A DNA stretch of 19,835 nucleotides from a virus (lineage: Duplodnaviria; Heunggongvirae; Uroviricota; Caudoviricetes). The stretch lies in IMG/VR virus record IMGVR_UViG_2534681832_000045, one strand, 5' to 3'. Position numbers: made by a program. Numbering within the stretch: position 1 is the stretch's first letter; each line of letters starts with the position of its first letter. Of the stretch, positions 9,001-15,000 are shown piece after piece.

Positions 9001-12000
9001 TTAGTAACGGCCTGAGCGTTCCGCCAGTCCGGCGACAACTGGCGGCCCCCAAACGCCCGTCGGGGCCAACGCCAATTGAGTTGCTGAAACAGGAATATGA
9101 ACGCCGGAAAGCGGCTGGTTTTGTTTGAGTTGAGAAGTGATTTTTTACCGGGAGGAAATTTATGGAGACTGTTTTTGACGCACTGAAAGCGATGGGAAAA
9201 GCCACGTCGGTAGAGCTGGCTGCGCGACTTGATATCAGTCGTGAAGAAGTACTGAACGAGCTGTGGGAACTGAAAAAGGCTGGCTTCGTTGATAAAAGAG
9301 TATACACCTGGCGTGTGGCTGATAACAACGTTCAGCAGGAACAGCCAGCGCCAGAAGAAACCACCACGGCAACAGAAGCGAAAATCTCAGAGTGCGATTT
9401 AACCGCGACGATTGAACAACGCGGACCACAAACGGCGGATGAACTGGCTACGCTGTTCGGTACAACATCCCGCAAAGTTGCTTCAACGCTGGCAATGGCA
9501 ATCAGCAAAGGTCGTCTGATTCGCGTAAACCAGAACGGTAAAATTCGTTACTGCATACCAGGTGATAATTTACCAGCAGAGCCGAAAGTTGAATCGGTAG
9601 CGGAAACCGATGGTAAAGCCTTTCCTCAGCCAGCCGGTGTTGCGTTACCGGTACAGAAAGATGCAACACAGGAAGATATTAAAACAGAAACTGTGGCGGA
9701 CATTGTGCAGTCGCTGCCATCGTTTACTGCAACGCGAGAAGATGATTTGATTTTGCCATCGCTGCATATGGCAAATCGCGAACTGCGTAGGGCGAAGAAT
9801 CATGTCCAGAAGTGGGAGCGAGTCTGCGCCGCGCTGCGGGAGCTGAACAAGCACCGGGATATGGTTGCCGGGATTTGTCGGAAGTCCGGGCAATGAGCGG
9901 ATGGTGCAGGCCTGAAATCATGATACTAACAATGAAGGTAAAATGCATCGGCAGTCTGATTGGTCGTAGTGAGGCGGCGGTCAGGATGAAAGCCCAGGTT
10001 AAGGGAATAAGCCTGATTCTGCGGGGTGATTTTCACCAGTCAACAAAATATCCGTAGCGCGATAACGGTCAAAAATTATGGCGCTGACACTTTTGTGCCA
10101 CTGGAGATGACTGTACCTAAGTTCAGGGGAGAAGAACACGTCCGGTGGGATGGTCGGGCCAGATTTAAAGGGCAGGTCATGGCTCCAGCCTGTACGCTGG
10201 CAATGGAGGCTGCCTGGCGGGAAATTGATATGGGAACCACGCCACTCAGGGATTTACTGCCGGTCCAGAGAATAAATTCCTGTTACGGTTACACCACTGT
10301 GATCTTGCAAGTGCAGGAAAGTAGGTCTACACGGTAACGCGAGTGCGTGTAACTTTTGATGTCATTCCCGTAGAAACACCGGACAAATTTTCGCTGACAG
10401 GTCATGCAGAAGGTATAAATCTGCAGATTATGGACAATTACGGATATCCGGCAAGAGCCGGAAAAAGCATGCCGCCTCTAATTCTCAGTGGAAGATGGAC
10501 TTGATTATACTCATTGCATTGTCAGAAATAGTTATCCATTAAAGGCTGGCTATTCCAAACAGGATGTTGATTACAAAAATGTAATCAACATGTAAGGTTT
10601 ATACTCTTCAATATGCGTATAATTTTCCTTATTTTGTTGACTTTAAATAACAAGCTATGCACGAGGTAAAGTCGGATAAGTTTATCTGGATGTAATATAT
10701 ATTATTTGTAGTGTTTATAACTTTATTTCATGATAACCAATAAAAGGAGTTTTTTATGAGGAACATAATGGCAGGTTTTTTAATATTCCTGTCTTCTGCT
10801 GCTTATGCTGATATCAATCTGTATGGTCCTGGTGGCCCGCATACAGCCTTGCTTGATGCAGCCAAACTTTATGCCGAAAAAACAGGTATTATAGTGAACG
10901 TTCATTACGGCCCACAGAACAAATGGAATGAAGATGCCAAAAAAAATGCAGATATCTTGTTTGGCGCATCAGAACAATCTGCTCTGGCTATCATTCGGGA
11001 CCATAAAGACAGCTTCAGTGAAAAAGATATTCAGCCTCTTTATCTGCGAAAAAGTATTTTACTGGTAAAGAAAGGTAATCCTAAAAATATCCGGAGTATT
11101 GACGACCTGACCAGACCTGGGATTGGCGTAATTGTTAATGATGGTGGTGGTACCAGTAATACATCAGGCACTGGCGTCTGGGAAGATATTGCCGGACGTA
11201 AAGGGAATATAGAAACTGTCGCCGCAATCCGAAAAAATATTATTTTATATGCGCCCAATAGCGGAACTGCACGTAAGGCTCTTGAGAATCAGCCTGGAGC
11301 AGATGTCTGGATAACCTGGGCTGACTGGGCAGCCAGTAATCCAGAAATTGGTGATGTCGTGGAAATAGCGCCAGACTACGTGATATGGCGTGATATGAAC
11401 ATTACAGTACGTCAGGATGCAAATGATGAAACCCGTCGATTTGCAGAATGGCTACAAACCGATGAAGCGGCGCCTGCATTCAAAAAATATGGCTGGACCA
11501 GGAAAGGCACTTGACATCCTCGTCCTTCAGGACGTGGATTCTTTTTCCGGATGCCGCGCCAGCGGCATGTAGGGGCAGCTCACAAAACGGAAAAAATTGT
11601 ACGCTAAGCCTCGCCAGGTGAACTGAATTCATTCCGATATGGGAATTCCCATATCGGGCGAAAACGGTTTGCTGTAACGGCAGAGTTAAGTAGGATTGCT
11701 GCGGGTGCTTGAGGCTATCTGCCTCGGGCATGAACACCAACGGCAGATAGATAAAAGCCCCACCCGACTATAAATCGAAGTGAGGCCCCTATATGCTCGT
11801 CACATATAGATTGCCTCTTACGGACCGAAAGGTCAAGGAGAAGCAGGCTATGAAGCAGCAAAAGGCGATGTTAATCGCCCTGATCGTCATCTGTTTAACC
11901 GTCATAGTGACGGCACTGGTAACGAGGAAAGACCTCTGCGAGGTACGAATCCGAACCGGCCAGACGGAGGTCGCTGTCTTCACAGCTTACGAACCTGAGG

Positions 12001-15000
12001 AGTAAGAGACCAGGCGGGGGAGAAATCCCTCGCCACCTCTGATGTGTCAGGCATCCTCAACGCACCCGCACTTAACCCGCTTCGGCGGGTTTTTGTTTTT
12101 ATTTTCAACGCGTTTGAAGTTCCGGACGGCGCCGGAATAGAATCAAAAATACTTAAGTAGCGCGCAGGGAGAAGAGGGATGGACCCCGAACAGGGGAGTG
12201 CTATTTATCTGGAAGGATTCTGTTGATGAGAATCGAAGAATTACGTGAAATTTTTAGTGAAGATGGCCTCTATACTGTGCGCGTTGAGAAGGGCGCTATT
12301 GTCAGCCACTGCCGTATTAAATGTTTACAGTCTCAACAAAGGAAGAGTGGAGCTGCGTTAATTCATTTTGTGGATGGGCTTGTGACGGATGGTTTTATTT
12401 TGCGTGCAAATGAATTTGTCACATCGTTGCCGTCTCTGAAAGAAGCTGGGATTAAGGCTGGTTTTTCTGCTTTTGAAGATTAGTGAATTCATCTACAATT
12501 CAGCGCAGGGCTGAACCCCTGTTGAGTAACACTGTGCCACCGGAGAAAGCCGATGGCGCAAAATTCCAGACTACACAATTCTGATAATTCAGCCGTCTTT
12601 GCCAGCAGGCACGGGCGGCGTTCTCATGCATTCAAATCTGACTGGTTCCGGCACGCCCCATGCACTGAAGAACAGGCCGAATGGCTGATTCAGAACTACC
12701 GCAGACGTGGGGATGAGTTTAGGAAAGCCCTCAGCCTCGATTATCGTCACTGGATAATCTACGTCAGGCTGCCGTACTCCGAGCGCCCACCGCGTCCGTC
12801 CCGCACATTCCAGCAACGCATCTGGAGGTAACGTGCGGGTATTACTTCGACCTGTTCCGGTACCGGAACTTGGGTTGGTGGTCCTTAAACCAGGCCGTGA
12901 ATCCATGCAGGTATTCCATAACCCTCGAGTGCTTGTGGAGCCGGAACCGAAAAGCATGCGCGGTCTGCCGTCCGGCATCGTCCCTGCCGTTCGCCAGCCG
13001 CTGGCGGAGGATAAATCATTACTGCCGTTTTTCAGCAATGAGCGTGTGATTCGTGCTGTTGGTGGCGCTGGTGCACTGTCTGACTGGCTGTTGCGTCATG
13101 TCAAATCCTGCCAGTGGCCTCATGGTGACTATCATCACAGTGAAACCGTTATTCACCGTTATGGTACCGGCGCAATGGTGTTGTGCTGGCACTGCGACAA
13201 CCAGCTGCGTGACCAGACATCCGAATCACTCGAGCAACTTGCTCATCAAAACCTGTCAGCATGGATGATTGACGTCATCGGTCACGCAATAAGCGGTACG
13301 CAGGAGCGTGAATTATCTCTGGCTGAATTATCCTGGTGGGCGGTCCGCAATCAGGTGGCGGACGCGCTACCGGAAGCGGTATTACGTCGTTCGCTGGGGT
13401 TGCGTGCGGAAAAAATCCGCTCAATGTACCGTGAAAGCGACATCGTACCGGGAGAGCAGACCGCCACCATCATACTGAAGCAGCGCACAAAAAATCTTGC
13501 GCCGCTGCCTCACGCCCACCAGCAAAACCCGCCACAGGAAAAGACGGTGGTCAGCATTGCCGTTGATCCGGAGTCACCGGCTCAGTATCTCCAGCGCCAG
13601 AAACCACAACGGGAAGAGATGCCTGTATACACGCGCTGGGTAAAAACGCAGAAATGCATGACGTGCGGTAATCAGGCAGATGATCCGCATCACATCATTG
13701 GTCATGGACTGGGAGGGATGGGAACAAAGGCTGATGATTTGTTTGTTATTCCGCTGTGCCGTAAATGTCATAACGAACTGCACGCTGGGGTAAAAGATTT
13801 TGAAGAAAAACACGGCAGCCAGCTGTTGTTGCTGATTCGTTTTTTAATGCACGCGAGAAATTCGGGTGTCCTGAAGTGGAAAGCATGAATGACTGAACGG
13901 ATAGAATTTGTTTTGCCTTACCCGCCGACGGTGAATACCTACTGGCGACGTCATGGCAATACGTATTTCATCTCGGAAGCCGGAAAGCGTTATCGCCGTG
14001 ATGTGGCGCTAATTGTTCGCCAGCAGCGGCTGAAATTAAACCTGTCCGGAAGGCTGGTGATAAAGATTATTGCAGAGCCACCGGATAAGCGCCGTCGTGA
14101 CCTGGACAATATCCTGAAAGCACCACTGGATGTGCTGACGCATGCCGGACTTCTCATAGACGACGAGCAGTTTGATGAAATCAATATTGTGCGCGGTCAG
14201 CTCGTTCCTGGTGGGCGGCTGGGGATAAAAATCACAGAACTGGAGTGCGCATGAATAACCACTATTTACAGTTTGTGCGTGAGCAGCTCATTATCGCCAC
14301 CGCTGATTTGAGTGGGGCAACAAAAGGTCAGCTTGAAGCCTGGCAGGAGAATGCCATGTTCGATACAGGGCGTTACAGGCGAAAAAAATCCGGTACCGCG
14401 ATGAAGTGACTGGAAAAATGATAACGCGGGATAATCCACCAATCCCGGGAAAGCAATCGCTGGCGAAGGTGACGTCAATTCCTCTGGTCAGTCCGGTTGA
14501 GTTTTCGACATCATCGTGGCGGCGGGCTGTTCTGTCTCTTGAAGAACATCATAAAGCCTGGTTGTTGTGGTGTTACAGCGGGAGTATTTGTTGGGAATAT
14601 CAGATCGCGATAACACAGTGGGCGTGGAATGAATTTAATACTCAATCCGGTACCAGAAAAATTGCTGGGAAAACGCAGGAACGCCTGAAAAAATTAATCT
14701 GGCTGGCGGCGCAGGCAGTAAAAGCAGAACTTTTTGGTGGGGAAGGTTATGAATATCAGGAGCTGGCATTACTGGCGGGAGTGACAACTAAAAACTGGTC
14801 CAAAACATTTACTCGTCACTGGGTTGCAATGAAACACATTTTTCACCGACTGGATAGTGAGGCTTTATTATTTGTAATGAGAACACGTTCAAAACAAAAG
14901 GCGGCATTTTCAAAGCAAAGTGTTGCAAAAGTAGATTGAAAGGCATATATTTCATGCAAATCTGATATTTTGCCGATTTTGTACGTGATGGCAAAAGCAA

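Follow-up and report, generated by a model that had tools for sequence, protein, structure and literature searches.

Why does a perfect 24-bp palindrome stand upstream of a phage-borne hok toxin gene, and does the toxin depend on it? The question is raised by a stretch of 19,835 nucleotides from a Caudoviricetes virus record (IMG/VR IMGVR_UViG_2534681832_000045), referred to below as the window and numbered from its first letter. A preliminary description, made from the sequence alone, had taken the toxin for an orphan hokD-type gene with no relBE partner and had looked to the palindrome, together with a second inverted repeat, as the place where regulatory folds of the hok mRNA or a Sok-like antisense RNA would be expected. 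Comparison with related prophages points elsewhere. The palindrome does not belong to the hok system; it appears to be a relic of a predicted abortive-infection gene of the KilA-N/BstA family, the neighbor of hok in related prophages, and hok itself probably belongs to a complete, conventional hok/mok/Sok type I toxin-antitoxin module. We put the probability that the orphan palindrome is a relic without a role in hok at roughly 0.7.

Origin of the palindrome

The elements on which the comparison turns are the following.

11634 to 11657, no strand: perfect 24-bp palindrome CCGATATGGGAATTCCCATATCGG (12 + 12 nt, no spacer).
11623 to 11664, minus strand: putative remnant of a KilA-N/BstA-family gene, about 40 nt, reading ..FSP-DMGIPIS-E*IQ (blastn-short and tblastn).
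11669 to 11696, plus strand: candidate hok promoter, with a -35 element TTGCTG at 11669-11674, a 16-nt spacer, a -10 element TAGGAT at 11691-11696 and a start at G11703 (sequence reading).
11850 to 12005, plus strand: coding sequence of the hokD-type toxin, 51 amino acids (Pfam HOK_GEF and the Prokaryotic Genome Annotation Pipeline, PGAP).

The palindrome is present as the preliminary description gave it, and its 22-nt core finds no match in 200 shuffles of the window, even with three mismatches allowed. Positions 11624-11656 align at 94-97% identity (blastn-short, minus strand) with the interior of intact genes for a 254-residue protein in viral contigs L102-L131, and tblastn pairs the remnant DMGIPISE*IQ with DMGIPISELIQ of the gene, adding only about four codons beyond the palindrome. 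In the Escherichia coli-type contigs among them (L102-L114 and L131), the intact gene carries the palindrome at codons ~58-65 and stands divergent from a hok module about 340 bp away, which is 96% identical to that of the window and has the same short-leader allele. The 254-residue protein matches phrog_6287, "BstA abortive infection system," over its full length (E 4.6e-89), has a Pfam KilA-N domain and a PADLOC match to the BstA C-domain (6e-21), and shares 32% identity with the BTP1 BstA C-domain. No such intact KilA-N + BstA gene is found in the window, where about 13 codons with a stop remain and the 86-residue open reading frame (ORF) on the minus strand has no Pfam match. The association of the palindrome with hok is thus best ascribed to synteny with the BstA-like gene, not to shared function; the remainder of that gene would have been lost by rearrangements ending close to the palindrome.

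A sample of hok loci drawn blind to the palindrome, from viral contigs picked by a 16-mer of the hok 5′ end, bears this out. The palindrome lies at most 160 nt from hok in 11 of the 106 loci; the other 95 have 58 different upstream sequences, and a general hok feature it is not. The hok loci of 19KM1776 and B95dA keep a small upstream ORF and are without exactly the 36-bp segment that contains the palindrome, and two contigs (L066 and L067) have ibrB/ibrA-like genes in place of hok after a copy of the palindrome with a single mismatch (GGGAATTTCC; ~2500-4540). The proposal that the palindrome is a hok regulatory site is therefore not sustained: it occurs at few hok loci and derives from an unrelated neighboring gene, an outcome that the preliminary description had itself named as counting against the idea.

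The ibrB/ibrA-like genes of L066 and L067 encode a ParB-like protein and a 3′-phosphoadenosine-5′-phosphosulfate (PAPS) reductase-like protein. In many prophages a conserved 34-residue hydrophobic ORF (MSDDISLAMEGALAVIAVVGVYCLVVFLMDRLGN) ends 7 nt before the palindrome (L002, 2906-3010; L066, 2406-2510; L068, 2411-2515); the window keeps only its last codon and stop (gaactga, 11620-11626), the adhesin gene paa having replaced the remainder.

A palindrome shared by KilA-N genes

The palindrome of the window is conspicuous because its parent gene family carries a perfect palindrome at those codons and keeps it at the DNA level. When one genome per species was scanned (596 Gb), the exact 22-mer was found at 63 genome loci, compared with a chance expectation of ~0.03 by simple arithmetic, and it occurs at at least 120 viral loci. 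The hosts range over Nostocales, Saprospiria, Rhizobiales, Dehalococcoidia, Spirochaetes, Firmicutes, and Enterobacterales, and for about 37 of the 63 copies the surrounding ORF has a Pfam KilA-N match (E 1e-19 to 1e-27). A KilA-N subfamily that includes the BstA-like genes has a perfect palindrome of 22-28 bp with a GGAATTCC core at codons ~57-65 (loci L003-L065, L074-L153, and L354-L433), and the same codons are occupied in Enterobacteria, Cyanobacteria, Chloroflexi, Spirochaetes, Firmicutes, and Bacteroidota. The identical 22-mer is even read in two frames at the same site of the KilA-N domain, as DMGIPIS in proteobacterial, cyanobacterial, and other genes and as RYGNSHIA in Saprospiria-type genes, two subfamilies that are only 23-27% identical.

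Genes collected through other peptide motifs, again blind to the palindrome, tell the same story. A perfect palindrome of at least 22 bp lies within 111 nt upstream of the GTW motif in 39 of 125 distinct KilA-N genes; palindromes in 375 control windows of equal size, taken from these genes, reach 14 bp at most. The arms occur in at least 25 variants (for example, GGTCCATGGGAATTCCCATGGACC, CCGATACCGGAATTCCGGTATCGG, and CCGATGCGGGAATTCCCGCATCGG), all perfectly complementary and all with the GGAATTCC core, and the amino acids they encode differ. In a gap-free codon alignment of 70 distinct segments, compared with 500 shuffles, 82.6% of cells are paired (61.3% after shuffling), both sides have changed in 164 cells (63 after shuffling), and the covariation score is 0.505 as against 0.165, a value that none of the 500 shuffles reached; a shifted pairing register gives at most 0.15. 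A hairpin acting only as RNA is not favored, because G:T and A:C mismatches are equally frequent, although at six each the numbers are too small to tell an RNA hairpin from a DNA element.

The feature is confined to a subfamily. Most of the distant KilA-N genes of Bacteroidota gut phages have no palindrome, and neither does bstA of BTP1, whose N-domain is different. Across phyla, no conserved partner gene beyond lineage-specific neighbors was found beside the palindrome-bearing KilA-N genes. Literature searches on the sequence and on KilA-N with palindrome returned nothing relevant, and the report on BstA by Owen et al. (2021) mentions no palindrome or inverted repeat (PMC8585504); a family-wide palindrome of KilA-N/BstA-like genes is apparently an undescribed feature. 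Outside KilA-N genes, clusters of different GGAATTCC-core palindromes occur in an Alcaligenaceae metagenome-assembled genome (MAG), in Tolypothrix, and in a proteobacterial MAG (L016, 2587-2665; L052, 4447-4491; L041, near 7908), one of them a 38-bp perfect palindrome (TCCCGTATCGATATGGGAATTCCCATATCGATACGGGA).

The hok module and its prophage

If the palindrome does not belong to hok, what does the hok locus itself contain? Its remaining elements are listed here in order of position.

11703 to 12096, plus strand: full-length hok mRNA, from the Rfam leader start at 11703 to the terminator end at ~12096.
11703 to 11714, plus strand: tac element GGGTGCTTGAGG (minimum-free-energy structure; inverted repeats I6 and I7).
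11715 to 11750, plus strand: 5′ hairpin of the hok mRNA (CTATCTGCC ... GGCAGATAG) (Rfam consensus structure, folds, and conservation).
11753 to 11836, minus strand: candidate Sok gene, with -35 TTGACC at 11836-11831, -10 CAATCT at 11813-11808, and an RNA from ~11801 to 11753 (read from the sequence).
11793 to 12005, plus strand: mok reading frame, 70 amino acids (ORF list; Pfam HOK_GEF over residues 25-66).
12055 to 12067, plus strand: fbi element CCTCAACGCACCC, complementary to tac (inverted repeats I6 and I7; fold).
12074 to 12100, plus strand: intrinsic terminator of hok, with a UUCG tetraloop and a T run (hairpin energy and terminator scan).

The toxin gene is of a known kind. Hok matches Pfam HOK_GEF (PF01848) with an E value of 1.2e-23 (82.9 bits, cutoff 22), RefSeq loci bearing the name hokD are 100% identical to this one, with WP_000813254.1 (HokD) as the PGAP product, and the exact sequence is thus already annotated as hokD. 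The Hok peptide and the UUCG-tetraloop terminator stand as first described, the latter with a 7-bp stem, AACCCGC-TTCG-GCGGGTT, at 12074-12091 followed by TTTGTTTTT in the terminator scan. The mok frame is an in-frame N-terminal extension of Hok in the ORF list, the same layout as in MokC. All 157 positions of the Rfam model RF01794 match the window at 11703-11852 (103.9 bits; gathering score, 59); on this evidence the family, though named sok, describes the sense-strand hok leader from the presumed hok start to the hok ATG. The promoter assigned to hok scored below a stringent consensus promoter scan, and its stretch is kept in hok loci that have unrelated upstream DNA, with the Rfam model beginning at 11703.

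The transcript was folded and compared with hok/sok elements, as had been proposed: the fold of 11703-12096 reaches -166 kcal/mol (z = -7.1 relative to shuffles) and pairs the 5′ end with the 3′ end, the first 12 nt (GGGUGCUUGAGG, tac) binding CCUCAACGCACCC at 12055-12067 (fbi) in the minimum-free-energy structure. This is the same closed full-length architecture as described for hok mRNA, from which the definitions of tac and fbi are also taken (PMC9841398). The second inverted repeat was rightly noticed, with perfect 9-nt arms at 11715-11723 and 11742-11750 and extended arms at 11704-11723 and 11742-11761 of 75% complementarity. Paired in the Rfam consensus, in the full-length fold, and in a fold of the 5′ 63 nt (-28.5 kcal/mol, z = -4.5), and kept in all aligned hok loci, it is the standard 5′ hairpin of hok mRNA. 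The regulatory folds expected upstream of hok are therefore to be found in this repeat and not in the palindrome, which lies outside the transcript and upstream of the Sok region (~11753-11801).

The candidate Sok gene, whose promoter we place by analogy with plasmid R1, has a 17-nt spacer between TTGACC and CAATCT and is absent from the output of the consensus promoter scan. Its RNA would end in a stem-loop followed by UUUU and would cover the Shine-Dalgarno sequence and start codon of mok; the minus-strand fold of the region gives -22.1 kcal/mol (z = -3.4), and the region falls inside the Rfam sok/hok-leader match. Because the full-length Rfam leader, mok, the tac/fbi pairing, and a candidate Sok promoter and terminator are all present, the locus is probably a complete module, and the label "orphan" given to it in the preliminary description does not hold. 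If it follows the plasmid R1 paradigm, a hok mRNA starting at ~11703 would be closed by pairing of its 5′ tac with its 3′ fbi, trimming of the 3′ end would open it and allow translation of mok to drive that of hok, and the short antisense Sok RNA (~11801 to 11753) would block this coupled translation; post-segregational killing, or toxicity under Sok control, would then follow as in R1. In the Hok/Gef peptide, the overlapping mok frame, the full-length leader match, the predicted tac-fbi pairing, the Sok region antisense to the mok start, and the intrinsic terminator, the locus resembles the hok/mok/Sok loci of plasmid R1 (parB) and of chromosomes and prophages (hokC/mokC/sokC type; RF01794, PF01848). 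Nothing essential differs, although the leader is shorter than at most hokD-type loci, which contain a segment ~CATTACGCGTCCTGCAAGACGC with a GCGTC/GACGC hairpin that is missing here (21 alignment columns; window 11762-11775 versus L002, L068, and L069-L071). This short allele is a genuine variant, since it recurs in L102 and L257.

It is true that hok has no relBE upstream, as had been observed: neither the ORF list nor Pfam finds relB or relE there, only paa, which ends at 11514, and 335 bp of noncoding DNA. That relBE should be its partner does not follow, for relBE is a type II system in its own right, and loci without it are the norm. The hok gene of the K-12 Qin prophage (relB-relE-hokD, also relF) has an identical Hok protein, the same 3′ untranslated region (UTR) and terminator, and matching genes downstream (rem, a hypothetical gene, and DUF968/ydfU); the window has the full leader and no relBE, whereas in K-12 relBE is fused to hok ~14 nt before the start codon. 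K-12-type loci (relB-relE-hokD-rem-ydfU) align only from query position 322, or window ~11836, whereas with other prophage hok loci the alignment already begins at the promoter (~11661-11684). Because the homology begins only at ~11836, K-12 relBE-hokD is to all appearances a truncated, rearranged copy without promoter, tac, 5′ hairpin, mok start, or Sok gene. Inactivation of K-12 hokD was reportedly ascribed by Pedersen and Gerdes (1999) to a major rearrangement. Prophage hokD-type loci thus emerge as complete hok/Sok modules, with K-12 relBE-hokD as the exception. For hok itself little is at stake beyond annotation, since PGAP marks the hokD coding sequence only and no Sok; enrichment of Hok in prophages has already been published (bioRxiv 10.1101/2025.08.07.668861).

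A few further observations concern this locus. The sole ORF of RelB or RelE size upstream, the 86-residue minus-strand frame at 11480-11740 mentioned above, runs across the palindrome (RYGNSHI frame) and also across the hok promoter; it is probably spurious. The hok 3′ UTR has a weak, sub-threshold match to the Rfam family isrK (window 12014-12095, plus strand; 24.9 bits, gathering score 50), which may reflect hok-like 3′ ends in that family. Two viral contigs, L228 and L243, contain hok modules disrupted just after the leader, one by a transposase-like ORF and the other by what looks like a cytosine-5 DNA methyltransferase, recalling the K-12 hok loci inactivated by insertion sequences.

The window itself is a lambdoid prophage of Shiga toxin-producing E. 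coli (STEC) of the PPompW type: a 586-nt region around hok is 100% identical to the annotated hokD/gef regions of PPompW lambdoid prophages and of STEC strain chromosomes, and some of the PPompW matches sit inside records of Stx2a-converting phages. The gene order in RefSeq strain E2865 runs from integrase, excisionase, exonuclease, dicB with DicF, immunity genes, and replication genes to a frameshifted fimbrial gene, paa, hokD, two hypothetical genes, a DUF968 gene, rusA, Q, tRNAs, and lysis genes. By this gene order, hok lies in a moron-rich stretch from the replication genes to Q, and the module is carried as a moron of the early-right region between paa and the rem/DUF968/rusA/Q genes. Two features adjoin it on the 5′ side.

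10756 to 11514, plus strand: paa, for the AcfC-family adhesin Paa (ORF, PGAP annotation, Pfam SBP_bac_11 E 5.5e-34).
11516 to 11549, plus strand: intrinsic terminator of paa, a stem-loop with a T-rich tail (inverted repeat and terminator scan).

The terminator comprises inverted repeat I5 (arms 11516-11526 and 11529-11539) and a scan match at 11521-11534 with TGGATTCTTT, and its hairpin has -12.7 kcal/mol. The paa gene stands where other prophages have the small membrane ORF or the bstA-like gene upstream of hok, and together with the frameshifted fimbrial gene it makes up a virulence moron directly 5′ of hok (window 10062-11514), in which each of the two genes has its own terminator. Elsewhere, the window encodes the antisense small RNA (sRNA) DicF at 4537-4588 (minus strand), adjoining dicB, with a full-length Rfam match of 76.7 bits that is typical of Qin-like prophages; an Rfam STnc100 sRNA match at 16152-16324 (plus strand, 100.8 bits), between a DUF3927 gene and a SASA-family esterase gene; and two phage-borne tRNA genes 3′ of Q, at 15135-15207 and 15301-15374 (plus strand), annotated by PGAP as Ile and Arg.

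Relic, regulatory site, or immunity element

Could the palindrome nonetheless serve hok? It could then be a cis-acting site particular to hok: an operator, centered near -58, through which a regulator acts on the hok promoter, or else a hairpin that insulates hok by terminating or processing transcripts running on from paa or from the early operon of the phage, which would keep the 5′ end of the hok mRNA exact. It occupies -70 to -47 relative to the presumed hok start, 11 nt upstream of the presumed -35, has the perfect dyad symmetry typical of dimeric regulators, and forms a stable hairpin (-18.3 kcal/mol on either strand); moreover, hok adjoins the exact 22-mer in at least 67 of 120 viral contigs. 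Yet this proximity is accounted for by the synteny with the bstA-like gene, 95 of the 106 sampled hok loci do without the palindrome, its distance from the hok -35 varies with the type of flank (and is larger in the L168/L257 type), and it occurs beside ibrBA where there is no hok. Nor is it a repeated operator of the prophage, since the window offers neither a further copy nor a half-site placed for regulation. It does not qualify as an intrinsic terminator either: the letters after the hairpin (GGCGAAAACGG, plus strand; AAUGAAUUC, minus strand) form no U tract, the terminator scan is silent, and paa has a terminator of its own. Among Rfam families with E up to 1, none at 11634-11657 is meaningful, the only overlap being a chance-level reverse sok match (E 0.61). 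We regard a hok-specific role as improbable, and the idea that hok is an orphan toxin that lost its antitoxin partner, with palindromes in place of the missing regulation, as more improbable still. The latter could appeal to the lack of relBE upstream and to the PGAP annotation of a hokD coding sequence only, but it is at odds with a complete leader, including the Sok-complementary region, that Rfam matches end to end, with the status of relBE as an unrelated type II system, and with a K-12 arrangement that is itself the one without a leader.

The reading of the palindrome as a mere relic has to contend with several observations that weigh against it. The homology outside the palindrome is short, ~12 nt. 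In at least four different flank contexts, both rearrangement end points lie no more than ~10-12 nt from the palindrome, a closeness that for a neutral relic is a coincidence unless palindromes attract deletion end points, as palindromes are known to do. Orphan copies by far exceed intact genes in E. coli (2097 places, 767 genomes, versus 140 places, 137 genomes), and sampled copies of the palindrome are nearly always perfect or wholly absent. The hok and Sok promoters and start sites, finally, are inferred. The end points, the number of orphans, and the perfect-or-absent pattern would also fit selection keeping the palindrome; on the other hand, it has been cleanly lost at some hok loci, slightly mutated copies exist, and most orphan copies stem from STEC prophages that recombine and share a recent origin, which counts against selective retention.

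If the palindrome has been retained by selection, the closest parallel is aba, a short cognate DNA-based element within the bstA locus that suppresses BstA (PMC8585504). Like bstA, the parent gene of the palindrome is prophage encoded and has two domains, an N-terminal KilA-N domain and the BstA C-terminal domain, and the palindrome resembles aba (PMC8585504) in being a short stretch of DNA that lies within the coding sequence of the defense gene and varies between homologs. The differences are equally plain. The palindrome is a dyad at codons ~57-65 with a constant GGAATTCC core, whereas aba of BTP1 is a 63-bp element at the gene start that overlaps the start codon and needs its terminal CCCGCC direct repeats (PMC8585504); bstA of BTP1 has a divergent N-domain and no palindrome, and the window holds the palindrome only, not the gene. 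Sequence, position, and symmetry all differ, and the palindrome is not the published aba element. A looser analogy is offered by binding sites embedded in the gene of their own binder, such as the iterons of lambda ori in gene O and parS in spo0J/parB. There, too, a symmetric DNA site lies in the gene of a DNA-binding protein whose codons are constrained by a DNA function; here the site is single and not an array, binding by KilA-N is hypothetical, and the origin could be neutral and mutational.

By analogy with aba, the orphan palindrome might be a retained DNA element of a BstA-like system, a binding site or decoy for KilA-N or BstA-like proteins that would act in cis or in trans as DNA, independently of hok, and would let the prophage replicate in cells, or beside co-resident prophages, that express the cognate BstA-like protein. 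That the gene family preserves the palindrome as DNA (the two frames, 39 of 125 genes against a control maximum of 14 bp, the covariation of 0.505 versus 0.165) would suit such an element, as would the BstA precedent and the survival, with both flanks replaced, of orphan copies that are more numerous than intact genes in E. coli. The aba mapped for BstA-BTP1, so different in sequence, placement, and dependence on direct repeats, speaks against it, as do the clean deletion at some hok loci and the slightly mutated copies; the same arms in very different KilA-N proteins, and different arms in close relatives, fit simple cognate recognition poorly. Upkeep could moreover be neutral. Template-switch correction of quasi-palindromes keeps their arms identical, and a palindrome seeded by an 8-bp dyad, GGA ATT CC encoding G-I-P, could have maintained itself in this way while the coding frame guarded it against deletion. 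We consider retention of an aba-like element possible but unlikely. At a similarly low level, the GGAATTCC-core palindrome may be a functional DNA element of KilA-N/BstA-like defense genes, serving for self-recognition, as a decoy, as a self-immunity site, or as a hairpin or cruciform sensed by the KilA-N domain, with orphans kept as stand-alone immunity determinants against abortive infection by BstA-like proteins of co-resident prophages. Two reading frames for one sequence, and identical arms in widely differing proteins, suggest that more than descent is at work, but the evidence does not decide between a selected site or structure of the DNA (or RNA) and a neutral, self-maintaining palindrome.

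Either outcome would be informative. The recognition of DNA by BstA and the mechanism of aba-type self-immunity are open questions (PMC8585504), for which the palindrome supplies a concrete, testable sequence. If, instead, template-switch correction alone keeps it, nature would here provide a clear case of a palindrome that perpetuates itself within a gene.

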